From contig DATGDH010000139.1 in the NCBI GenBank assembly GCA_035310985.1, positions 95,214-159,213 on the forward strand: a DNA stretch of 64,000 nucleotides, in the 5' to 3' direction. The stretch comes from Burkholderiales bacterium. GTDB taxonomy: Bacteria > Pseudomonadota > Gammaproteobacteria > Burkholderiales > SG8-39. Within the stretch, counting starts at the first letter, position 1, and each line of letters begins with the position of its first letter. The notes beneath the pieces were generated by a model, which worked only from the letters and a program-made list of their open reading frames with translations, had not been told where the DNA came from and ran no database searches. This document shows, piece by piece, positions 1 to 63,859 of the stretch. A program made the position numbers and the translations under genes.

Positions 1-590
1 GCTTGAGCGAACTCGCTACCGTTCGGCTGCGTTGCGAAAGCGGCGGCTACGACGTGCTGCCGGCTAACCGCGAACTCGCGGGCGCCGAGGTCGAACTCGT
101 CGGCATCGAACGGCGCGAGTTACGCCTCAAGGAGGCGCTCGCTGGCATTAGCGCCGATTACGATTACATCCTGATCGATTGCCCACCTTCACTATCCCTG
201 CTGACCATCAACGGATTGGTGGCGGCGGACGCGGTGCTGATCCCGATGCAGTGCGAGTACTACGCGCTCGAGGGACTGTCCGACCTGGTCGGCACCATCA
301 AGCGGGTACGCGCCCATCTCAACCCAGGGCTCGAGATTGCGGGATTGCTGCGCACTATGTACGACCCGCGTAACACGCTCTCGCTACAGGTATCGCAGCA
401 ACTGGAATCGCACTTCGGGGACAAGGTCTATCAGACGCTCGTGCCCCGCAACGTGCGACTCGCCGAGGCGCCGAGCTACGGCGTGCCGGCCGTCGTTTGG
501 GACAAGACCTCGAAGGGCGCCCAGGCCTACATCGCGCTGGCAGAGGAAATTTTGACGCGCGGCAAAGGCGCATTGCCCGCTGCGGCATAG
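1..590 (+). CDS. parA: ParA/Soj chromosome-partitioning ATPase, 5'-truncated by the window edge (reading frame starts at nt 3)
   Basis: ORF runs off the left edge. It contains the ParA-type core ...YDYILIDCPPSLSLLTINGLVAADAVLIPMQCEYYALEGL... and lies directly upstream of parB. Confidence 0.9.
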   Translation, partial: LSELATVRLRCESGGYDVLPANRELAGAEVELVGIERRELRLKEALAGISADYDYILIDCPPSLSLLTINGLVAADAVLIPMQCEYYALEGLSDLVGTIKRVRAHLNPGLEIAGLLRTMYDPRNTLSLQVSQQLESHFGDKVYQTLVPRNVRLAEAPSYGVPAVVWDKTSKGAQAYIALAEEILTRGKGALPAAA

Positions 591-606
591 AGCGAATGGA
601 ATAGTC

Positions 607-1443
607 ATGATCAAGCAAAAGGGACTGGGACGTGGGCTCGACGCGCTGCTTGGCGGAGACGAGCCGCCGCGCGAGGCGCTCACGACACTGCCCGTGGGCC
701 GCATCCGGCCCGGAAAATACCAGCCGCGCACGAAGATGGACCAGGAAGCTCTTGCCGAGCTGGCCTCGTCCATAAAGTCTCAGGGCCTGATGCAGCCCCT
801 GCTGGTGCGCCCGGTAGCGCGCGACCGCTATGAGCTGATCGCCGGCGAGCGGCGCTGGCGCGCCGCGCAAATGGCCGGGCTGGACGAGGTCCCGGCACTG
901 GTGCGCGATGTACCGGACGAAGCTGCACTCGCGATGGCACTGATCGAAAATATCCAGCGCGAAAACCTGAACCCCATGGAGGAAGCATCGGGGCTGCAGC
1001 GGCTCATCGATGAGTTCAAGATGTCCCACGAGCAGGCGGCCGATGCCGTTGGACGCTCGCGCAGCGCCACGACCAACCTCTTGCGCTTGCTAAAGCTCAC
1101 AAAGCCGGTTCAGGCGATGGTCATGGAAGGCGTGCTGGATATGGGTCATGCGCGCGCCATCCTCGCGCTGGACGGAGCGCGCCAAGTGGAGGCTGCCAAG
1201 CGCATTGCGGCTCGCGGTCTTTCAGTGCGCGAGGCCGAAGCGCTGGTCGCCAGGATGTTGCGTGGCAACGCGTCCCATCAACGGCGGAAGCCTGACCGCG
1301 ATATGGCTCGACTCGAAGAAGAGGTCTCGGAGCGGCTCGGCACGACGGTCGAGATACGCCCTGGTAGAAAGGGGAGCGGCAAGCTGATCCTGCACTACTC
1401 CGGCCTTGATCACTTGGACCTGCTGCTGCGCAAGCTGCGCTGA
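607..1443 (+). CDS. parB: ParB/Spo0J chromosome-partitioning protein
   Basis: 278 aa with GLGRGLDALL, the ParB box LIAGERRWRAA and ENIQRENLNP, and an HTH region. Starts 17 nt after parA. Confidence 0.93.
   Translation: MIKQKGLGRGLDALLGGDEPPREALTTLPVGRIRPGKYQPRTKMDQEALAELASSIKSQGLMQPLLVRPVARDRYELIAGERRWRAAQMAGLDEVPALVRDVPDEAALAMALIENIQRENLNPMEEASGLQRLIDEFKMSHEQAADAVGRSRSATTNLLRLLKLTKPVQAMVMEGVLDMGHARAILALDGARQVEAAKRIAARGLSVREAEALVARMLRGNASHQRRKPDRDMARLEEEVSERLGTTVEIRPGRKGSGKLILHYSGLDHLDLLLRKLR

Positions 1444-29394: not shown

Positions 29395-29403
<9 letters not shown>
27718..29403 (+). CDS. ilvD: Dihydroxy-acid dehydratase
   Basis: 561 aa with conserved IlvD/Edd blocks (CDKNMPG, ...TDGRFSGGT...). 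Confidence 0.96.
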
Positions 29404-30882
<1,479 letters not shown>

Positions 30883-30929
30883 GCGGCGCGAAATTGTATC
30901 AACCGCGACGCGCGTGCCAGAATTCCGGC

Positions 30930-32066
30930 ATGAATCCGCTCCTTTTCGCGCCGATCACCCTTCGCAGAGTAACCGCGCGCAACAGGGCCGTCATCTCACC
31001 GATGTGCACCTATTCGGCGGCGGACGGCATGGCGCAGGACTGGCACCTGGTGCACCTGGGCAAGTTCGCCCTGGGCGGCGCCGGCATCGTGTTCGTCGAG
31101 GCGACCGCAGTCGAGGCGCGCGGCCGCATCACGCACGGCTGCCTCGGCATCTGGTCCGATGCGCACGCGCGCGCGCTCGGGCGTATCGCGCCGTTTCTCA
31201 AGGCGCACGGCGCGCTGCCCGCGATCCAGCTCGCGCACGCGGGACGAAAGGCGAGCATGCAGCGTCCCTGGTTTGGCAACGGCCCCCTCGGACCCGAGGA
31301 CGCGGCGCGCGGCGACCGGTCCTGGCAGATCGTCGGCCCGACCGCCGAGCCCGCGGCGGAAGGCTGGCTCGCGCCGCACGCCATGACGCGCGTCGACATC
31401 GACGAGGTCGTCGGCGCCTTCGCCGCCGCGGCGCGGCGCGCGCACGCAGCGGGCTTCGATATCGTCGAGCTGCACGGCGCGCACGGTTACCTGATCCACA
31501 GCTTCCTTTCGCCGTTGTCCAACACCCGCAGCGACGGCTACGGCGGCGCGCTCGGCGGGCGAATGCGCCTCGCGCTCGAGGTGGTCGACGCGGTGCGCGC
31601 GGCCTGGCCGGCGGACAAGCCCCTCTTCTTTCGCATCTCGTCGGTCGACGGCGTCGGCGGCCCCGGCTGGAAGATCGAGGACTCGATCGAGCTCGCGCGC
31701 GCGCTGAAGGCGCATGGCGTCGACGTGATCGACTGTTCCTCGGGCGGTATCTCGGGCCCGGTGACTTCGGCCATGGTGCCGCGCGAGCTCGGCTTTCAGG
31801 TGCCGTATGCGGCCGCCGTGCGCCGCGAGGCGGCCATCGCCACGCAGGCGGTCGGGCTGATCCTCGATGGGCCGCAGGCCGAGGCGATCCTGCAATCCGG
31901 AGCGGCTGACCTCGTCGCGGTGGCGCGCGAGGCGCTGGTCGATCCGTTTTGGGCGCATCACGCGGCGCGCGCGCTCGGCGTCGACGCCGATTTCGGCGGC
32001 TGGCCGGAACAGTACGGCTGGTGGCTGAAACGCCGTGCGAAGCTGCTCGCGGCCATCGGCCGCTAG
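30930..32066 (+). CDS. NADH:flavin oxidoreductase, Old Yellow Enzyme family (YqjM/NamA-like)
   Basis: 378 aa, LFAPITLRRVTARNRAVISPMCTYSA...HLGKFALGGAG...IQLAHAGRKAS...ELHGAHGYLIHSFLSP. Confidence 0.9.
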   Translation: MNPLLFAPITLRRVTARNRAVISPMCTYSAADGMAQDWHLVHLGKFALGGAGIVFVEATAVEARGRITHGCLGIWSDAHARALGRIAPFLKAHGALPAIQLAHAGRKASMQRPWFGNGPLGPEDAARGDRSWQIVGPTAEPAAEGWLAPHAMTRVDIDEVVGAFAAAARRAHAAGFDIVELHGAHGYLIHSFLSPLSNTRSDGYGGALGGRMRLALEVVDAVRAAWPADKPLFFRISSVDGVGGPGWKIEDSIELARALKAHGVDVIDCSSGGISGPVTSAMVPRELGFQVPYAAAVRREAAIATQAVGLILDGPQAEAILQSGAADLVAVAREALVDPFWAHHAARALGVDADFGGWPEQYGWWLKRRAKLLAAIGR

Positions 32067-32151
32067 CTACGAACCAAAGTCTTCGGTTCACTCTGCATCG
32101 TTATCGGTCTCATACAATAAGCGGATTTAAGTACTCCCTGATCAACTTTGT

Positions 32152-32484
32152 ATGAGCTGGGCAGAATTTGTTCTTTGGCTAACCTACGGTTTTTCGTTCG
32201 GCGCAGTAATACTTGTAAATCTGATTCTCTATTCGACGATTCTTCGTCCGCCGGTTAAAGGCGCGTCGCCGACGGAGCAAATACGCACCTTTGTATTGCG
32301 CCTTCCATTCGCTGTGGTTGGTATCGTCAGTCTTATGCCTCTACGGCCTCTTCGTCTTGCTTATGACCAGCATGAATTGGCGGGAGCCATCATTTTCCTT
32401 TGCTTCGTGGTGTTGACGGTTGTTATTGGTCTGAAAGTCTTGCTTCCGCGCTTCGTTACCATCAAGACAATGACCGACGACTAA
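32152..32484 (+). CDS. Hypothetical small membrane protein (3 predicted TM helices) in the low-GC islet
   Basis: 110-aa ORF with three hydrophobic ~20-aa spans and AT-rich codon usage unlike the flanks. I recognise no family. Confidence 0.45.
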   Translation: MSWAEFVLWLTYGFSFGAVILVNLILYSTILRPPVKGASPTEQIRTFVLRLPFAVVGIVSLMPLRPLRLAYDQHELAGAIIFLCFVVLTVVIGLKVLLPRFVTIKTMTDD

Positions 32485-32513
32485 CGCACCCTCATCTGCG
32501 CGAGAAACTGTAC

Positions 32514-32801
32514 TTGGAGCAATTGCTATTGGCTGTTGGTTATGGCTGGATGACTGGTAGCGCGCTTTTCTTGTTGAGTCTCTTCGTAAGGTTTCCTCGG
32601 GTGAATGGTCGGAGTGGATGGTTGTACCGACTGGTTCTTCTGATACCAGTCCCCGTCGTCCTCGTTGGGCTGGCTTTTATCGGAGACATCCTGTTCAAGT
32701 ACAAACGGATGGGAGTGGGCACTACCTATGTAGAAGCGGGTCTCGCTGCGGTTGTTGTATTCGCGCTTTGTTCGCGTGCACTACGAAATCGACAAAGGTG
32801 A
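32514..32801 (+). CDS. Hypothetical small membrane protein (3 predicted TM helices) in the low-GC islet
   Basis: The 3' part of track ORF 32400..32801 lies downstream of the preceding ORF's stop. The TTG at 32514 keeps the first hydrophobic helix intact (alternative ATG at 32550). The start is uncertain. Confidence 0.35.
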   Translation: MEQLLLAVGYGWMTGSALFLLSLFVRFPRVNGRSGWLYRLVLLIPVPVVLVGLAFIGDILFKYKRMGVGTTYVEAGLAAVVVFALCSRALRNRQR

Positions 32802-32976
32802 ATATTTGCTTCATTCGGGGAGCCATCTCGTTCGTTGAATTGCGGCACGCCTGCGTAGCCAACTCGTAGCCTCGCAGGATTTGGCAACGCTGCCATTCGA
32901 ATTTGCATCGCTACATCGAGAGATGGCAGGCGTCGCACGTCGTTAACTTGACAAGCAGCAACTCTCACTTCCGCGC

Positions 32977-33561
32977 CTAAAAGCCCGAGCCGGGCTGCTT
33001 CAGGAACTCGAGCTCTTCGGGCGTGCTCCGTCGCCCGAGTGCTTCGTTGCGGTGGGGAAAGCGGCCGAAGCGCGCGATGATCTCGTGGTGCCGCGCTGCG
33101 TACTGGTACACGTCATTCGTTTCCTCGAATTCCTCGAGCGGCCGCATCAGGCCGAGGCACAGCAACTGGTCCTCCAGCGCCTCGCTGTGCTCGAACGGCA
33201 GGTAGGTGAACATCCGCTCGACAGGCAGCATTTCCCGGTCGTAGCCCATTGCGAGCGCGTGGCGCGCCGCGTCGAGCGCGCGACCATCGCTCGCGAAGGC
33301 GCGTGCGCTGCCGCGAAACATGTTGCGCGGAAACTGGTCGAGCAGCACGATGAGCGCGAGGCAGTCGCCGGACTCGTCCTGCCAGCGCGCTAGGTCTCCG
33401 TGCGCGGCTGCCTCGTACAATGCGAGGAAGCGCTCGCGGATCGCGGCGTCGAACGCCGCGTCCTTGCTGAACCATTCCTTGCGCCGCTTGCCGTACTCGC
33501 TTTTGTTGCCGAACCAGAAGCTCAAGACCTGGCCGGTGCGAGGGTCTTTTGTGGGTCGCAT
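32977..33561 (-). CDS. DUF924-family protein
   Basis: [11 protein letters not shown] and [15 protein letters not shown] signatures. The start at 33561 is preferred because 33609 would overlap the divergent gene's start. Confidence 0.8.
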
Positions 33562-52630: not shown

Positions 52631-53338
52631 GTGCGTCAGCCCGCAGCGAGCGTGATCGCTCCGCCGAGCCTGCGCGTGGCCGCGGCGAGCGGCACGCTGC
52701 GCCTGCGCCGTGCGACCTTGCAGGCGTACTGGTTCAAGCCAGCGCTATTCGTACTCTGCCTGGTGCCGCTCGCGTCGCTCGTGTGGCGCGCATTCGCGGT
52801 GCAACTCGGGCCGAACCCCGAGCAGACGCTGATCTGGACCATGGGGCTCTGGACGCTGCGCTTCCTGCTGTTCACGCTGGCCGTTACGCCGCTGCGCCAA
52901 TTGACCGGGTGGGCCGAGCTCGCGCGCTTCCGGCGCATGCTGGGCCTATTCGCATTCTGCTACGCGGCGCTGCACTTCACCTGTTACCTGTGGCTGGTCA
53001 ACGACTTCAGTCTCAGCGCCGTGGCGAAAGACGTGGTCAAGCACCCCTTCGTGCTCGCGGGCATGACCGCGCTCGCCCTCATGCTGCCGCTCGCCGCTAC
53101 CTCAACGAACCGCATGGTGAAGCGCCTCGGCGCCAGGCGCTGGCAGGCGCTGCACAAGCTGGTGTACCTGGTAGCCGTGGTGGCGGTGTTCCACTTCTGG
53201 TGGCTCAAGCTGGCCAAGAACAACACGGCCGAGCCGAAGCTGTACGCCCTGCTGTTCGGGCTGCTGCTCGGCTACCGACTGGTCAAGGCGCTGCGGGCAC
53301 GCACGGACCGCGCCCGCGCGCTCACGCGCGGCGGATGA
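52631..53338 (+). CDS. msrQ: Protein-methionine-sulfoxide reductase haem-binding subunit MsrQ (YedZ)
   Basis: Ferric-reductase-like TM protein (TPLRQLTGW...RRMLGLFAFCYAALHF...HKLVYLVAVVAVFHFWW). There is no in-frame ATG near the N-terminus. The GTG at 52631 (GAGGA ~10 nt upstream) was chosen; 52610, 52652 and 52676 are alternatives. Confidence 0.85.
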   Translation: MRQPAASVIAPPSLRVAAASGTLRLRRATLQAYWFKPALFVLCLVPLASLVWRAFAVQLGPNPEQTLIWTMGLWTLRFLLFTLAVTPLRQLTGWAELARFRRMLGLFAFCYAALHFTCYLWLVNDFSLSAVAKDVVKHPFVLAGMTALALMLPLAATSTNRMVKRLGARRWQALHKLVYLVAVVAVFHFWWLKLAKNNTAEPKLYALLFGLLLGYRLVKALRARTDRARALTRGG

Positions 53339-54125
53339 CGTAGCCGCCAGACTTCTCGTCGCGCTCGAGCGCGACGAGCTTGCGCTTCTCGGCTTCCTCG
53401 AGCAGGTCGGAAAAGGCGCGAAAGCCGTAGTAGGACTCGTTGAAGCCGGGCTTCCTGCGCTTGAGCGTCTGCTTGACCATCGAGCCCCAGATCTTCTCGC
53501 CCTCGCCGCGCTCTGCGATCAGCGCGTCGACCGTTTCGAGCAACAGCTCCATCGCCTCCTGCTGCTTCTCGTCGGCTTCCGGAGGTCCCTTGACGGTTGC
53601 CGCGGGCCGCGCCTCCTTCCTCTTGCGCGCTGCGCGCCGCTTCGCCTCCTCCTCGCGCACGAGGTCGTCGTAGTAGATGAATTCGTCGCAGTTGGCGATC
53701 AGCAGGTCGGAGGTCGAATTCTTCACCCCGACGCCGATAACCACCTTGGCGTTTTCGCGCAATTTGGAAACGAGCGGCGAGAAGTCCGAATCGCCGCTGA
53801 TGATCACGAACGTGTCGACGTGGGATTTCGTATAGCACAAGTCGAGCGCGTCTACGACCATGCGTATGTCCGCCGAGTTCTTCCCGGATTGGCGCACGTG
53901 AGGAATCTCGATCAGCTCGAACGAGGCGCCGTGCATAACCGACTTGAATTCCTTGTAGCGCTCCCAGTCGCAGTACGCCTTCTTCACCACGATGCTGCCC
54001 TTGAGCAGCAAGCGCTCGAGCACGCGGTTGATGTCGAACTGCGCGTACTTGGCATCGCGCACGCCGAGGGCGATGTTCTCGAAGTCGCAGAACAAAGCCA
54101 TGTTGCGGGTTTCCTGGGTGGCCAT
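53322..54125 (-). CDS. NYN (LabA-like, PIN-related) nuclease-fold domain protein with a C-terminal OST-HTH/LOTUS domain
   Basis: 267 aa. NYN core ALFCDFENI...GKNSADIRMVVDA...VIISGDSDFSPLV, a charged linker, then a LOTUS-like region (...WGSMVKQTLKRRKPGFNESYYGFRAFSDLLEEA...). Its 3' end overlaps msrQ by 17 nt. Confidence 0.8.
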   Translation of the reverse strand: MATQETRNMALFCDFENIALGVRDAKYAQFDINRVLERLLLKGSIVVKKAYCDWERYKEFKSVMHGASFELIEIPHVRQSGKNSADIRMVVDALDLCYTKSHVDTFVIISGDSDFSPLVSKLRENAKVVIGVGVKNSTSDLLIANCDEFIYYDDLVREEEAKRRAARKRKEARPAATVKGPPEADEKQQEAMELLLETVDALIAERGEGEKIWGSMVKQTLKRRKPGFNESYYGFRAFSDLLEEAEKRKLVALERDEKSGGYVIRRA

Positions 54126-54129
54126 TTTT

Positions 54130-57100
54130 TTAGTCCGACTCCTTAGGGGCGAGGGTCACGGTGGGCGCGGCGACGCCGGCGGTAGCGGCGCTACCGCGCC
54201 CGTACAGCCATCCCTGCAGCCGCTCGAAGTAGAGGTAGATCACCGGGGTGATGTACAGCGTGAGAATCTGGGAAAACACCAGGCCGCCGACGACCGCGAG
54301 TCCGAGGGGCCGGCGGGCTTCGCCGCCGATGCCGATCGAAAGCGCGATCGGAAGGCTGCCCATCAACGCGGCCATCGTGGTCATCATGATCGGGCGGAAG
54401 CGGACCACGCAGGCTTCGAAGATCGCCTCCTGCGGAGACTTGCCGCGCTGCCGCTGCGCCTCGATCGCGAAGTCGATCATCATGATCGCGTTCTTCTTGA
54501 CGATGCCCACGAGCATGATGATGCCCACGAAGGCGTACATGTTCAAATCTATGCCGAAGGCCCACAGCGTGACCAGCGCACCGAGCCCCGCGGTCGGCAG
54601 GCCGGAGAGGATCGTGAGCGGATGGATGTAGCTCTCGTAGAGAATGCCGAGCACGAGGTAGATCACCACGATCGACAGCAGCAGCAGCAGGCCCATTCCC
54701 TGTATGGACGCCTCGAAGGCCTGTGCAGTCCCCGAGAAGCTGCCGCTGAGCGTGGGCGGCACTTGCAATTCGAGTGTCAGCGCCCGCACGGTGTCGATCG
54801 CCTGAGAAAGCGAAACCCCCGGCGCGAGATCGAATGAGATGGTGACCGACGGCAGCTGACCGAGATGGCTTACCGAAAGCGGGCCGACGCCGTAGGAGAG
54901 CCTGGTGACGGCGGTGAGCGGCACCAGCGCACCAGACTTTGAACGGATATATAAGAGCGGCAACGCCGACGGGTCGGCTTGAAAGCGGGGTTCGACTTCG
55001 AGGATGACCCAGTACTGGTCTGTGGCCGTATAGATCGTCGACACCTGCTGCGACCCGTACGCGGTGCCGAGCGCTGACTCGATCTGCTGAACCGTGACGC
55101 CGAGCGCGGCTGCCTTTTCCCGGTCGAATTCGATCAACACCTGAGGTTGGCGTATCTGCAGGTCGCTGGTCACGTCGACCAGGCTGGGCAAGGTCTTCAG
55201 CTTCTCCTCGATTATCGGAACCCAGTGGTAGAGCTCCTCAGTGCTCGTGCTGCGGAGCACGAACTGGTAGGGGCTCTTCGTGAGCAGGCCGACGCGGATT
55301 GTCGGAATGTTCTGCAGATAAGCTTTCATCCCGATGAGATTCGCCAGCTTGGGACGCAGCTGCTGAATGACTTCGTCCGCCGACACGCGCTCGGAGCGCG
55401 GCTTGAGCGTGATGAACATGCGTCCGAGATTGAGCGAGGAATTGAGTCCCGCGGCACCTATGAACGACATGACCGCCTCGACGTTCGGATTGACGCGGAT
55501 GATGTCGGAGACTTGCTGCTGCAGCTTCGCCATCGCGTCGAAGGAGATGTCCTGCGGTGCCTCGGTAAAACAGAATATTTGTCCGGTGTCCTCCGCAGGG
55601 AGAAATCCCTTGGGCATATTCACGAAAATGATTACGGTCGCGCCGGTGATTGCGAAGAACACGACCAGAACGAGTAGAGCGTGGTGCAACGACCACGCAA
55701 GCGTCTCGCGGTACGCGTCGCGCAGGGCGTCGAATCCACGCTCGAATGCCCGGTAAAGCCTGCCGTGTTCGCGCTCGTGCTCGGGACGCAAGATCCGGGC
55801 GCACATCATCGGCGTAAGCGTGAGCGATACGAACCCGGAGATCAGCACGGCGGCAATGATGGTCACCGCGAACTCGTGCAGCAGCCTGCCGAGTATGCCG
55901 CCCATGAACAGTACGGGAAGGAACACGGCAGCGAGCGACAGGGTCATCGACAGGATGGTGAAGGCGATTTCCTTCGAGGCGTCGAGCGTCGCCTGCATGC
56001 GGGTCTTGCCCGCCTCCATGTGACGTGTGATGTTCTCGAGCATCACGATCGCGTCGTCCACGACGAACCCCACGCATAGCGTGAGCGCCATCAAGGAAAT
56101 ATTGTCCAGGCTGTAGCCGAGCGCATACATGACCGCAAAAGTGCCGACGATCGACATCGGCAGCGCGACGCTCGGTATGAGCGTCGCCGAGAGATTGCGC
56201 AGGAACAGGAAGATCACCATGACCACCAGCGCAAGCGCCAGCAACAGCGTGAACTGCACCTCCTCGACCGACTGGCGGATCGTCACGGAGCGGTCGAACA
56301 GCACCTCCATGCTGATTCCAGCAGGTACCTCGGCGCGAAAAGTCGGTAGCAGCTTGCGGATCGAGTCGACGACTTCAATCGTATTGGTGCCGGGCTGCCG
56401 GAAGATCGCGAGCACGATTCCGCGCTTGTCCTTGAACCAGGCCGCCACCTTGTCGCTCTGTACGCCGTCGATCACACGCCCGAGTTGACTGAGCCTGATC
56501 GGAGCGCCGTTGCGGTAGGTGACAATGATCGGACGATAGGCCGCCGCATCGTAGAGCTGGCCGCTCGCCTGCACTGCAAAGAGGCGGTCGCGCCCGTACA
56601 GAGTGCCGGTCGGTAGGTTGACGTTCGCATTGGCGATCGCCTGCTGGACTTCGTCTATGCCGACGCCGCGCGAAGCAAGCGCGTTCGGATCGACTTGGAC
56701 GCGCACGGCGTACTTCTGCTGGCCGAACACCTGCACCTGGGCAACCCCGCTGATCGTCGAGATTCGCTGTGCGAGAAAGGTTTCGGCGTACTCGTCTACG
56801 GTCGACAGCGGCAGGGTGTCGGAGGTCAGCGCGAGGTAGAAGACGGCGAAGTCGCCGGGATTGACCTTGCGGAAAGACGGTGGCGTGGTCATGGTCGGAG
56901 GCAGTTGCCGTGCCGCCGTGGCGATCGCCGCGCTCACGTCCTGGGCCGCCGCGTCGATGTCGCGGTCGAGCGCGAACTGGATGGTGATCTGCGTGATGCC
57001 CTGGCCGCTCACCGAATTCATCGAATCGATTCCGGCGATCGTGGAAAACTGCTTCTCGAGCGGCGTCGCGACCGCCGAGGCCATGGTTTCCGGACTCGCC

Positions 57101-60303: not shown

Positions 60304-62613
60304 CTAATTGCCAGAGGAAGGTGTCACGTAATCGTCCATCGGCGTGAACGAAGGCTGCGGAGCGCGCGGCACATTCTCCTCGTAGAAATACTCCAGTATC
60401 GGAGCTGAATCATTCGGGATCGTCGGATCTGGCCCGGTTTCCACGCGGACCACGCCTGGCGGCATCACGCGCGGCATCTCCGGGACGCCGTTGAGCACCT
60501 GCTCCATATATCCCATCCAGATCGGTAACGCGACCGCGGCTCCGGTCTGATTACGTCCCAGCGATTTCGGCTGATCGAAGCCAACCCAGGCGATACCCAC
60601 GACGGTCGGCTGATAGCCGCAAAACCACGCGTCTACGAAGTCGTTCGTCGTGCCGGTCTTGCCGGCGATATCGTGCCGGCCAAGGCGCGCGGCGCGCGCC
60701 GCCGTACCGTACGTAACCACGTCCTGCATCATGCTGTCGATAATAAAGGCATTACGGGCGTCGATGACTCGTTGCGTACCTTCTGCGGCACGCTGCGGAT
60801 GCGCAACGGCCACCGGCTCTCCGCGATCGTCGACCACCTTCTGGATGTAGTAGGGCTGCACGAGGTAGCCGCCGTTTGCAAATACCGAGTAGGCGCGTGC
60901 CATCTGCAACGGCGTCACCGATCCGGCACCGAGCGCCATCGTCAAATACGGCGGGTGCTTGTCGGCGTCGAACCCGAAGCGAGTGATGTAGTCCTGGGCG
61001 TATTTCGGGCCGATCGCCTGCAAGATTCGGATCGACACCATGTTCTTCGATTTCGCCAGGGCTGTGCGCAGGCGCATTGGCCCATCGAACGTACCGTCGT
61101 AATTGCTCGGCTCCCAAACCTGGCCCCCGGTTACTTCAGGCTCGATTACGAGCGGTTCGTCGGGCACCACAGTGGCCGGCGTAAAGCCCTTTTCCAGCGC
61201 CGCGGAATAGATGAATGGCTTGAACGATGACCCGGGCTGGCGCCAAGCTTGGATGACGTGGTTGTACTTGTTTCGATCAAAATCGAACCCGCCTACCAAT
61301 GCGCGGATCGCGCCGTCCTGCGGATCGAGGGCGACGAATGCCGATTCGGCATCCGGCAGTTGCACGATCTGCCAGTGCTTCCCGTCTGCAAGTTGCACGC
61401 GCACGATCGCCCCGCGTCGGATGCGCTTTTGCGGCGCAGCCTTCGGGCTAAGCGACGCAGCCGCGAACTTGAGCCCGTCGCCCGAGATCTTGATCGTCTC
61501 GCCGCTGTGCAACACGGCCGATACCGCTTTGGGGTTTTCCTCGATCACCACTGCGGCAAGCAGCTCGTCGTTGTCCGGATAGTCCGCAAGAGCATCCTCG
61601 TAGTCTTCCTCGTGCGCGTCGTCGGGCAGCTTGGCGAAGCCCTCCGGCCCGCGATACCCGTGCCGCCTGTCGTAGTCCATGAGGCCCCTGCGTAGCGATT
61701 CGTAGGCTGCCTCCTGGTCTGATTTGCGGATAGTGGTGTATACGCGGAAGCCTCGCGTGTATGCGTCCTGACCATACTGCTCGTACATCGCCTGACGTAC
61801 CATCTCCGCCAGATAGTCGGCGTGTACCGCATACTCTGAGGCAGTTCGAGGCGCGCGCCGCAATGGCGCTTTGAGTGCTTCTTCTTGCTGCGCCTCGGTG
61901 ATGTAGCCCAGCGCTCTCATGCGACGCAAGACGTAACGCTGGCGCTGTCGTGCGCGCTGTGGGCTGGTGATCGGGTTGTAACTCGAAGGTGCCTTGGGTA
62001 AGCCCGCCAACATCGCGGCCTCACCCAAGGTCAGTTTGTCGAGCGACTTGCCGAAATAAGTCTGTGCCGCCGCTGCGAAGCCATAGGCACGCTGTCCAAG
62101 ATAGATCTGATTGATATACAGCTCGAGAATCTGGTCCTTCGTGAGGCTGTGCTCGATTTTGAAGGCCAGTAGGGCCTCATACAGCTTGCGCGTCAGCGTC
62201 TTCTCGGACGAAAGAAAGAAGTTGCGCGCGACCTGCATGGTGATCGTGCTTGCGCCTTGCCTGCGTCCGCCGGCGAGCAGATTGGAGTAGGCGGCACGTA
62301 GCACGCCGGCATAGTCAATGCCCGTGTGCTGATAAAAGCGCTCGTCCTCCGCGGCGATGATCGCGCTCTTGAGTGTCTGCGGTACCTCGGCAATCGAGAT
62401 TACGGAGCGGCGCTCCTCGCCGAATTCGCCGATCAGTTCCCCGTCCGCCGTATACACGCGCAGCGGGACTTTTGGCTGGTAATCGGTGAGCGAGTCGAGT
62501 GACGGAAGGTTCGGGTAGGCGAGCAACAGCACGAGCGCGGCAATGCCGGCGCCGACCACGAATAATCCCGCGAGTAGAGCCAGCGGGAACAGCAAAAAAC
62601 GACGCCACATCAA
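60304..62613 (-). CDS. mrcA: Penicillin-binding protein 1A (bifunctional glycosyltransferase/transpeptidase)
   Basis: 769 aa with GT51 motifs (EDERFYQHTGID, RKLYEALLAFKIE) and transpeptidase motifs SSFKP and KTGTT. Confidence 0.93.
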   Translation of the reverse strand: MMWRRFLLFPLALLAGLFVVGAGIAALVLLLAYPNLPSLDSLTDYQPKVPLRVYTADGELIGEFGEERRSVISIAEVPQTLKSAIIAAEDERFYQHTGIDYAGVLRAAYSNLLAGGRRQGASTITMQVARNFFLSSEKTLTRKLYEALLAFKIEHSLTKDQILELYINQIYLGQRAYGFAAAAQTYFGKSLDKLTLGEAAMLAGLPKAPSSYNPITSPQRARQRQRYVLRRMRALGYITEAQQEEALKAPLRRAPRTASEYAVHADYLAEMVRQAMYEQYGQDAYTRGFRVYTTIRKSDQEAAYESLRRGLMDYDRRHGYRGPEGFAKLPDDAHEEDYEDALADYPDNDELLAAVVIEENPKAVSAVLHSGETIKISGDGLKFAAASLSPKAAPQKRIRRGAIVRVQLADGKHWQIVQLPDAESAFVALDPQDGAIRALVGGFDFDRNKYNHVIQAWRQPGSSFKPFIYSAALEKGFTPATVVPDEPLVIEPEVTGGQVWEPSNYDGTFDGPMRLRTALAKSKNMVSIRILQAIGPKYAQDYITRFGFDADKHPPYLTMALGAGSVTPLQMARAYSVFANGGYLVQPYYIQKVVDDRGEPVAVAHPQRAAEGTQRVIDARNAFIIDSMMQDVVTYGTAARAARLGRHDIAGKTGTTNDFVDAWFCGYQPTVVGIAWVGFDQPKSLGRNQTGAAVALPIWMGYMEQVLNGVPEMPRVMPPGVVRVETGPDPTIPNDSAPILEYFYEENVPRAPQPSFTPMDDYVTPSSGN

Positions 62614-62782
62614 GGGAGTTAGCCCGAAATCGCGGGCCTAGGCACCGGACGCGAGAGAGAGGGCATTATAGGGGTTCTGGCCCTGTGGAAAATTCACTAG
62701 ACACTAGCTAGGCTTGTTGCTAGCATTTAACGCAATTTCTACGTATTGCGCCTAACACGCCGGAGCGCAAGGGAAAATAACG

Positions 62783-63859
62783 ATGGAACTGGACATTTTC
62801 AAGCCGAAGACGCCGCCGTTGTTCGGGCTGGATATCAGTTCGTCGTCGGTCAAGATGCTGGAAATTGTGGAAGCGGGAAAGGGGGCCTATCGCGTCGAGC
62901 GCTACGCAATAGAGCCATTGCCGCGCGAAGCTGTCGTCGACGGCAACATCAATAACTTGGAGACCGTAGCCGAAGCGGTAAAGCGCGCGCACAAGCGGCT
63001 TGCGACGCGCACCAAGCACGTCGCCATGGCAGTCCCATCCGGTGCCGTGATTACGAAGAAAATCATCGTACAAGCTGGGTTGCGTGAAGAAGAGCTCGAG
63101 GTACAGGTCGAAACCGAGGCCAATCAGTACATTCCGTTCGCTCTGGATGAAGTGAATCTTGACTTCCAGCGGATCGGGCCCGCGCCTTCGAGTCCTGACG
63201 AGGAGGAAGTGCTAATCGCCGCAACCCGCAAAGAGAAGGTTGAGGACCGCGTTGCGGTGGCCGAGTCCGCGGGACTCAAGGCTCTGGTCATGGACGTCGA
63301 GTCCTATGCGCAGCAAAGCGCCCTCTCGCTCGTGGTCCAACAACTGCCGGGCGGAGGCAAGGATCAGAACATCGCGGTTGTGGATATTGGCGCCAACGTG
63401 ATGAACGTTACCGTGCTGCGCAACGAGCAGTCGGTCTACACCAGAGAGCAGGCATTCGGTGGAAACCAGCTCACGCAGGATATCGTTAGTCGCTACGGCA
63501 TGAGTGTGGATGAGGCCGAGAACGCGAAGCGTTCGGGCGGCTTGCCGGACGATTTTGAAGCCGAAGTGTTGCGTCCGTTCATGGACAACCTTTCTATGGA
63601 GGTCCAACGCGCGCTGCAGTTCTTCTTCACTTCTACGCAATACAGCAGCGTCGACCAGATTCTCCTTGCGGGCGGATCCGCTGTTATTCCAGGCCTGGAC
63701 GAAGCGGTGCATACGCGCACGCAGGTTTCGTGCATGGTCGCCAATCCATTCGCGGCGATGCAAACGTCGCCTCGTATCCAGCTGAAACGTCTGATTGTTG
63801 ACGCACCTTCGCTGATCATCACCTGCGGGCTGGCTATGCGGAGGTTCGATCCGTTATGA
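62783..63859 (+). CDS. pilM: Type IV pilus assembly protein PilM (actin-like ATPase fold)
   Basis: 358 aa, LFGLDISSSSVKMLEI...VVDIGANVMNVTVL...ILLAGGSA. Divergent from mrcA, as in many proteobacteria. Confidence 0.92.
   Translation: MELDIFKPKTPPLFGLDISSSSVKMLEIVEAGKGAYRVERYAIEPLPREAVVDGNINNLETVAEAVKRAHKRLATRTKHVAMAVPSGAVITKKIIVQAGLREEELEVQVETEANQYIPFALDEVNLDFQRIGPAPSSPDEEEVLIAATRKEKVEDRVAVAESAGLKALVMDVESYAQQSALSLVVQQLPGGGKDQNIAVVDIGANVMNVTVLRNEQSVYTREQAFGGNQLTQDIVSRYGMSVDEAENAKRSGGLPDDFEAEVLRPFMDNLSMEVQRALQFFFTSTQYSSVDQILLAGGSAVIPGLDEAVHTRTQVSCMVANPFAAMQTSPRIQLKRLIVDAPSLIITCGLAMRRFDPL

Follow-up and report, generated by a model that had tools for sequence, protein, structure and literature searches.

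A low-GC islet of about 0.9 kb (positions 32067-32976) lies in a stretch of 64,000 nucleotides (nt) of a Burkholderiales contig, here called the window, and holds two tandem small open reading frames (ORFs), ORF1 and ORF2. We propose that the islet is a horizontally acquired, orphan two-gene immunity cassette with its origin in the locus of a polymorphic Rhs toxin, and we put the probability of this reading at roughly 0.7. The pair is read as immunity genes because its homologues fill the position of cognate immunity genes in seven to eight independent contexts elsewhere, and the cassette is read as an orphan because the window contains neither Rhs nor toxin-tail sequence. A preliminary description of the window had left immunity, toxin and phage-exclusion functions side by side for the two genes. 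The Rhs-tail context on seven to eight contigs favours the first of these.

Homologues of the two genes in the immunity position behind an Rhs toxin tail

The slot directly 3' of the variable toxin domain is that of the cognate immunity gene in Rhs loci, in loci for contact-dependent growth inhibition (CDI) and in effector loci of type VI secretion systems (T6SS). In seven contigs (L084, L086, L087, L089, L090, L091 and L092) we found that the stop codon of a conserved tail is followed, within about 20 nt or with an overlap, by a homologue of ORF1 and then by a homologue of ORF2; the contigs are described in Table 1 together with L001, the tentative eighth. All four contigs with enough upstream DNA (L086, L090, L091 and L092) have the tail fused to an RHS core. 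For L086 the core is recognised by TIGR03696 with E 4.4e-23 and 81.6 bits, where the cutoff is 32.5, and that of L090 has seven RHS_repeat matches at E 3.3e-25, with a core junction reading ...DPIGIDGG...DPEGE before the tail. Such core ends with a DPxG-type junction are readable in L090, L091 and L092. The tails are related to each other, as seen from comparisons of L084 with L090 (E 1e-15), L087 (E 1e-10) and L086 (E 2e-7). Between L091 and L092 the C-terminal toxin domain (CT) is 85% identical, the ORF1 homologue 81% and the ORF2 homologue 70%, a co-divergence that is as expected and that linkage alone would also give. Thus the family occupies the immunity position, while in the window itself the gene upstream of ORF1 encodes an OYE-family oxidoreductase.

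Within the 64-kb window, tblastn with Rhs and toxin-tail queries gave nothing convincing (best E 0.18). Remnants of a toxin gene and shared flanks were also sought on both sides of the pair, in 32067-32151 and 32802-32976, and none were found: the upstream spacer is not homologous to those 3' ends of toxin genes which precede ORF1 homologues elsewhere, nor is the downstream stretch to the corresponding parts of the other loci. A second pair of this kind is present on L093, where the 211 nt upstream contain no toxin tail and have stops in all three frames.

The ORF2 homologue directly follows the ORF1 homologue in L001, L084, L086, L087, L089, L090, L091, L092 and L093, and the two co-occur in every locus long enough, including both toxin-less ones (the window and L093). 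Since the genes travel together everywhere, even without a toxin, this suggests that ORF1 and ORF2 work as a unit. It could be argued instead that one of the proteins is the immunity protein, and the other an accessory which helps in membrane insertion or toxin handling, or a second immunity protein that serves another compartment or is directed at another toxin. The two do belong to unrelated families (hhalign probability 0.3%), and most known immunity proteins against membrane toxins are single, for example Tsi5 (PMC9637101). However, a toxin accessory would be useless in the toxin-less window and in L093, and with ExiC and ExiD an obligate pair is already on record (PMC12744356), so that we consider such a division of labour improbable.

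The other functions named in the preliminary description would make the pair itself a small membrane toxin, a holin-like module or a phage-exclusion module with no relation to Rhs immunity. Such roles are indeed open to small polytopic membrane proteins encoded in low-GC islets. In contrast, the pair consistently stands directly after an Rhs toxin tail, no phage genes lie nearby, and searches for phage, plasmid and defence-system relatives were without result: PADLOC had no match for ORF1 or ORF2, the best PHROGs match was at E 0.098, and by tblastn ORF1 was found in no phage record and neither ORF1 nor ORF2 in any plasmid record. We therefore see very little room for this possibility.

One further contig, L088, carries an ORF1 homologue behind a different small membrane-anchored protein. 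This upstream protein has 110 amino acids (aa), is signal-anchored and has no Pfam match. The ORF1 homologue corresponds to protein P0007, which was called with a probably spurious N-terminal extension of 50 aa. L088 may represent an array of immunity-like genes. In L084, a fragment with 69% GC at 1139-1489 on the minus strand, 3' of the cassette, shows a weak match to the resolvase-type domain HTH_7 (E 1.2e-4, below the Pfam cutoff), which hints at a mobile element as neighbour in that genome.

Properties of the toxin tail

The tail consists of 19% Gly and 27% Ala, lacks Asp and Glu entirely, and contains two hydrophobic stretches and about twenty glycine-zipper motifs of the form [GAS]xxx[GAS]xxx[GAS]. 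Because of this composition, the zipper motifs and the two hydrophobic segments, it is most likely a membrane-inserting, membrane-depolarising toxin. Neither Pfam nor NCBIfam has a model for it, and tblastn of the tail against plasmid records gave no match.

We also considered the tail as a homologue of Tse5-CT. This was dropped, as phmmer and profile searches against all chain sequences of the PDB, whose Tse5 entries we take to hold the Tse5-CT toxin tail, returned chance-level matches only and no Rhs protein.

Two observations concern the upstream parts of the toxin genes. In L091, positions 2-500 encode a Ser/Thr-rich stretch (…SGYTFTPPSRSQSNVTTNLTGQDFTA…) before the end of the RHS core. 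Since it stands there instead of YD repeats, the toxin tail may sit on N-terminal scaffolds of different kinds. Further, Illumina adapter sequence (AGATCGGAAGAGC...), which translates as '...HHRDLHS.PTRRSSDL', is present at contig ends, at 1-50 in L084 and at about 610-675 in L085. For this reason the partial gene in L084 begins with 17 residues that are an assembly artefact.

ORF1 and ORF2 as protein-coding genes

The two tandem ORFs of 110 and about 95 codons named in the preliminary description were recovered at the positions given in Table 1, and both are protein-coding and under purifying selection. L001, a contig of 900 nt, carries an ORF1 homologue 66% identical to that of the window and a colinear ORF2 homologue. 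Over the 110 codons of ORF1 the ratio of nonsynonymous to synonymous substitution rates (dN/dS) between the two is 0.155, with no indel and with mismatch fractions of 0.23, 0.18 and 0.51 at codon positions 1, 2 and 3. For ORF2 the ratio is about 0.3 outside the overlap with ORF1. The two alternative frames give ratios of about 1-1.5; the flanks do not align. All close homologue pairs give 0.15-0.34 for ORF1 and, in total, 0.20-0.31 for ORF2, of which 0.20-0.27 is the range in the larger set of homologues, without indels or frame-breaking changes, and the reading frames are kept across about ten loci. The low ratios in the called frames only, together with the absence of indels, are the reason for regarding both as real genes. 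The only polymorphism seen is T/C at 32421 in L003, which is synonymous in ORF1.

The frame of ORF2 is open from 32400 to 32801. Its likely start is the TTG at 32514, which yields 95 aa, with the ATG at 32550 as an alternative, and a conserved motif E-x(8)-GW lies near the start. The frame thus extends 38 codons 5' of the likely start, over the end of ORF1 (32400-32513 in the window and 297-404 in L001; 133 aa in total in each). In this stretch dS is 0.10 in the ORF2 frame, while the ORF1 frame has a dS of 0.85 and a dN/dS of 0.16. The open upstream frame looks like a by-product of the constraint on ORF1 and not like part of a longer ORF2.

Three hydrophobic segments are found in each protein, as the preliminary description had noted, and an AlphaFold2 model of ORF1 consists of three long helices (predicted local distance difference test score, pLDDT, 72.7). 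With the charges judged by the positive-inside rule, the N-terminus is predicted outside and the C-terminus inside for both proteins. An origin of ORF1 and ORF2 as paralogues was ruled out by the hhalign comparison mentioned above. No match above noise was obtained for either protein in Pfam, which includes the colicin-immunity families, or in NCBIfam. A fold search had been suggested as a way to identify the proteins, and it did not do so: Foldseek with the ORF1 model against the PDB returned generic helical bundles only, all with E >= 3 and none with E <= 0.001.

The ORF1 family is rare. When 1.84 billion representatives were scanned exhaustively with an ORF1 profile by HMMER, no more than 7 proteins were retrieved; a protein identical to ORF1 is annotated as hypothetical in metagenome-assembled genomes (MAGs) of Burkholderiales. 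Protein P0008 could be placed on no contig, the scan of metagenomes with the ORF1 profile came back empty, and the alignment of ten ORF1 sequences is too divergent to derive search patterns from. The 133-aa frame of ORF2 had no match in a word-indexed search of proteins, and a two-sequence profile found the ORF2 homologues P0003 and P0004. In the NCBI annotation of MAG GCA_050264335.1 ORF2 (L002, 6363-6650) was not called in spite of its conservation and purifying selection; the ORF2 homologue in L090 (about 1780-2094) was likewise missed.

Composition and boundaries of the islet

The GC content of 32067-32976 is 50.3% against a window mean of 66.0%. With a standard deviation of 3.5% among 910-nt windows this is about 4.5 standard deviations below the mean, and it is the minimum among all 910-nt stretches of the 64 kb. 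In a profile of 200 nt the GC content falls abruptly just past the OYE stop codon (32066) and rises again at the DUF924 stop codon (32977). The GC content at third codon positions (GC3) is 0.51 in ORF1 and in ORF2, compared to 0.86-0.89 across the four neighbouring genes. The islet, its borders and its AT-rich codons are therefore much as first described from counts made by hand. Of these counts, 24, 24, 32 and 39 of 60 were reproduced, while 32001-32060 contains 41 G+C and not 42.

Downstream of ORF2 the islet ends in a non-coding stretch of the length first stated, with no notable ORF, no match in an Rfam search and an RNA fold z-score of -0.83, which is not significant. The preliminary description saw no integrase, tRNA or clear flanking repeats, and our searches agree: none of the three was found at the islet, there is no tRNA in the 64-kb window, and target-site duplications or inverted repeats at the flanks did not exceed chance size. 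The islet, a single module of two genes, is not a several-gene array with a recombinase or mobile-element context, as in acquired interbacterial defence islands of the Bacteroidales type.

Other dips in GC content within the window go down to about 54-59% and none is comparable to the islet. All are in unremarkable places: they correspond to the gene of the ATP synthase a-subunit (1871-2900; ATP-synt_A, E 6e-55), to an AcrB-family RND pump gene (54751-55500; E 0), and to the area where a minus-strand ORF of 769 aa has its 5' end, plus the spacer before pilM (61691-63081; PilM_2, E 3.9e-148). Directly downstream of the RND pump gene, an NYN-domain protein (E 2.4e-37) is encoded at 53322-54125 on the minus strand.

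Table 1. Features of the islet and its borders, gene order at the DUF924 junction, and loci with homologues of ORF1 and ORF2
Sequence	Coordinates	Strand	Feature	Remarks
Window	30930..32066	+	OYE-family NADH:flavin oxidoreductase, left boundary	Pfam Oxidored_FMN E 5.9e-65
Window	32067..32151	.	AT-rich spacer, 85 nt, 5' of ORF1	GC 42%
Window	32152..32484	+	ORF1, 110 aa, putative immunity component 1	membrane helices ~7-31, 44-64, 78-98
Window	32514..32801	+	ORF2, 95 aa, putative immunity component 2	membrane helices ~4-25, 38-59, 68-88
Window	32802..32976	.	non-coding stretch, 175 nt, to convergent DUF924 stop	GC 54%
Window	32977..33561	-	DUF924 protein, right boundary	native composition; Pfam DUF924 E 4.3e-67
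Window			lgt, ilvD, AMP-ligase, OYE, ORF1, ORF2, DUF924, DsbH-like	gene order
L004			DsbH-like, DUF924, AMP-ligase, ilvD, lgt	gene order; closest relative
L006, L007, L008, L036, L040, L041			DsbH-like, DUF924, then convergent ilvD, lgt	gene order; DUF924 stop abuts ilvD
L084 (ENA)			partial upstream gene ending in Gly/Ala-rich domain, then ORF1 and ORF2 homologues	ORF1 homologue 10 nt after upstream gene
L086 (Logan)			239-aa gene with RHS repeat-associated core and Gly-rich tail, then ORF1 and ORF2 homologues	
L087			end of conserved tail, ORF1 homologue, start of ORF2 homologue	
L089			end of conserved tail, then ORF1-ORF2 pair	
L090			470-aa fragment with RHS core and tail, ORF1 homologue, uncalled ORF2 homologue	
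L091, L092 (JGI)			end of RHS core, tail, ORF1 and ORF2 homologues	found with tail profile
L001 (JGI)			27 nt upstream of ORF1 homologue read ...TSTNLRGYAR*, like tail C-terminus	tentative eighth toxin-linked locus
L093 (Logan SRR18906541)	1-1169		second toxin-less pair	intact
L088 (Logan SRR10083321)	311-1156		ORF1 homologue behind different small membrane-anchored protein	contig ends before any ORF2

Gene order at the DUF924 junction

With the DUF924 protein as query, species-representative genomes were scanned, and relatives with up to 70% identity were found. The pair of DUF924 and the DsbH-like (thioredoxin) gene is conserved in L004, L006, L007, L008, L036, L040 and L041. At the 3' junction of DUF924 none of these seven syntenic relatives carries ORF1 or ORF2, and none carries OYE, which is present there in the window only. 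Since both are missing from the relatives, the junction has gained genes repeatedly. The preliminary description, which had asked whether this junction is empty in relatives, placed the islet between convergent core genes; OYE and DUF924 are convergent indeed, but OYE is absent at this position in the relatives. Within the variable junction, at 29395-33561 of the window, the AMP-ligase gene is inserted in L004 and in the window only.

The OYE gene, annotated with 378 aa by NCBI in the MAG, has a GC content of 72% and a GC3 of 0.89. Because this composition is native, the arrival of OYE was probably an event separate from that of the islet. Low GC is also seen in homologous cassettes elsewhere (51-59%), in L084 even beside a flank of 69% GC, so that the low GC content is a property of the cassette itself. 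The variable tips of Rhs loci and their immunity genes classically have a lower GC content than the Rhs core.

The foreign GC and GC3 values and the absence from all seven syntenic relatives support the view that the islet is foreign and was acquired horizontally, as an acquired orphan immunity module should be, and bear out what was first concluded about its origin. The opposite view is that ORF1 and ORF2 are an ordinary native gene pair, or chance ORFs in a non-coding spacer. It could draw on the lack of database family matches and on the missing annotation of ORF2 in the MAG, and is next to untenable: only the called frames have a dN/dS far below 1, these frames are maintained over some ten loci without stops or frameshifts, GC3 is 0.51 as compared to 0.87, and the syntenic relatives do not carry the pair at normal GC content or otherwise.

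Comparison with known systems and proposed mechanism

Immunity proteins against pore-forming colicins such as E1 and Ia are inner-membrane proteins of about 110 aa with 3-4 helices. They block the membrane-inserted toxin by helix-helix contacts in the bilayer, and are highly polymorphic and toxin-specific. The hydrophobic CdiI membrane proteins which confer immunity to ionophoric CdiA-CT toxins (PMC11630599) are alike in all these respects, and ORF1 and ORF2 resemble both groups. Unlike the pair described here, these immunities are encoded by single genes, and delivery is by Tol/Ton import or by CDI.

A closer parallel on the toxin side is Tse5 (RhsP1) of Pseudomonas aeruginosa, an Rhs toxin which, through ion pores made by its C-terminal domain, depolarises the inner membrane, and whose small integral inner-membrane immunity protein Tsi5 is encoded beside it (PMC9637101, PMC10684867). 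Immunity there lies with Tsi5 alone, for which two membrane helices are predicted; the islet instead encodes two proteins of three helices each. The tail also differs from Tse5 in that it has no detectable sequence homology to any PDB sequence, the Tse5 entries presumably included.

For the pair, the best parallel is EsxX with ExiC and ExiD, which belongs to the type VII secretion system (T7SS) of Staphylococcus aureus (PMC12744356). In both cases a glycine-zipper toxin is accompanied by a pair of small polytopic membrane proteins at the toxin locus, and either pair is also met, with both members present, as orphans in genomes or loci without the toxin. EsxX is a Gram-positive LXG/T7SS protein, in contrast to the toxin of the islet family, which is fused to an RHS core and found on Proteobacteria-like contigs. 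A soluble cytoplasmic immunity protein of the ExiAB type was seen in none of the loci analyzed here. The need for both proteins was shown experimentally for ExiCD (PMC12744356), whereas for ORF1 and ORF2 we infer it. The likeness was drawn with no detected sequence relationship between ExiC/ExiD and ORF1/ORF2, a direct comparison of which was not made.

Immunity genes against polymorphic toxins are already known to occur as orphans, and T6SS targets to have acquired interbacterial defence islands (PMC12247911, PMC10470768, PMC5361080). Like the islet, they are toxin-less and horizontally acquired, and they are thought to protect against competitors. They differ in that they usually form arrays of many genes, often with recombinases or at T6SS auxiliary clusters, while the islet is a single two-gene module between housekeeping genes without integrase, repeat or tRNA.

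By analogy to Tse5/Tsi5, the ionophoric CdiA-CT/CdiI systems and EsxX/ExiCD, we propose the following mechanism. ORF1 and ORF2 would be two unrelated small inner-membrane proteins of three helices each which act together, probably as a heteromer, and bind the glycine-zipper helices of the toxin within the bilayer. This binding would stop the assembly of a conducting pore and hence depolarisation, and the pair would protect its host from neighbours that deliver the toxin, presumably by a T6SS. Pore formation, its neutralisation, the heteromer, the delivery route and the expression in the host are all what we infer in this model.

It is tempting to go one step further and to speculate that the pair is a hitherto undescribed, obligate two-component inner-membrane immunity to Rhs toxins of Gram-negative bacteria that form pores and make up a new glycine-zipper family. 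It would then be the Gram-negative counterpart of ExiCD and would circulate as a mobile 'shield' of about 0.65 kb, which inserts between housekeeping genes without a recognisable mobility gene. We put this forward tentatively, at somewhat less than even odds.

Expression and possible decay of the cassette

Several points weigh against the proposed immunity function. The about ten related contigs are metagenomic and short (0.7-2.4 kb), and none of the toxin contigs contains the N-terminus of the Rhs protein, on which the delivery route, type VI or other, depends. ORF1 and ORF2 show no sequence or fold likeness to any characterised immunity protein or toxin. The AlphaFold2 model of ORF2, although helical with three long helices, is of low confidence (pLDDT 59.9). 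The term orphan holds for the locus, over the 64 kb searched, and not yet for the genome. Finally, ORF1 in the toxin loci appears to be translationally coupled to the toxin gene, which makes expression of the window copy uncertain, and this copy has neither a promoter consensus nor a visible ribosome-binding site: promoter and terminator consensus sequences were looked for around the islet and none were found, and no Shine-Dalgarno sequence was seen in the bases preceding ORF1 (spacer 32067-32151).

The last points would suit a decaying remnant, that is, a former immunity module which became silent or non-functional here after loss of the toxin or partial transfer. Such a remnant would lack promoter and Shine-Dalgarno sequences as well as the upstream toxin gene needed for translational coupling, and the failure of the NCBI annotation to call ORF2 would fit as well. 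On the other hand, both ORFs are intact and of full length, with no stop or frameshift and with a single, synonymous polymorphism. The second toxin-less pair, on L093, is also intact. Moreover, there is no terminator between OYE and ORF1, so that read-through transcription is possible; the window cassette may be expressed in this way, or it may be silent. Decay is in our opinion unlikely, yet of the alternatives weighed here it deserves the most attention, and we prefer to regard the islet as an orphan immunity cassette.

Significance

The novelty lies in three families without annotation and in the apparently obligate association of an Rhs toxin with two polytopic membrane proteins. At the level of annotation, ORF2 is a missed gene in a public MAG, and the islet exemplifies how metagenomic context helps to interpret small low-GC islets that lie between housekeeping genes. 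If the interpretation as an orphan immunity cassette is true, the three families, namely that of the toxin tail and those of the membrane proteins ORF1 and ORF2, would gain a testable function, and the pair would be a compact system in which to study the blocking of glycine-zipper pore formers within the bilayer. A two-protein membrane immunity to an Rhs toxin would parallel the recent Gram-positive finding of ExiCD. Last, the islet would be a further case of bacteria collecting immunity genes against weapons which they themselves lack.

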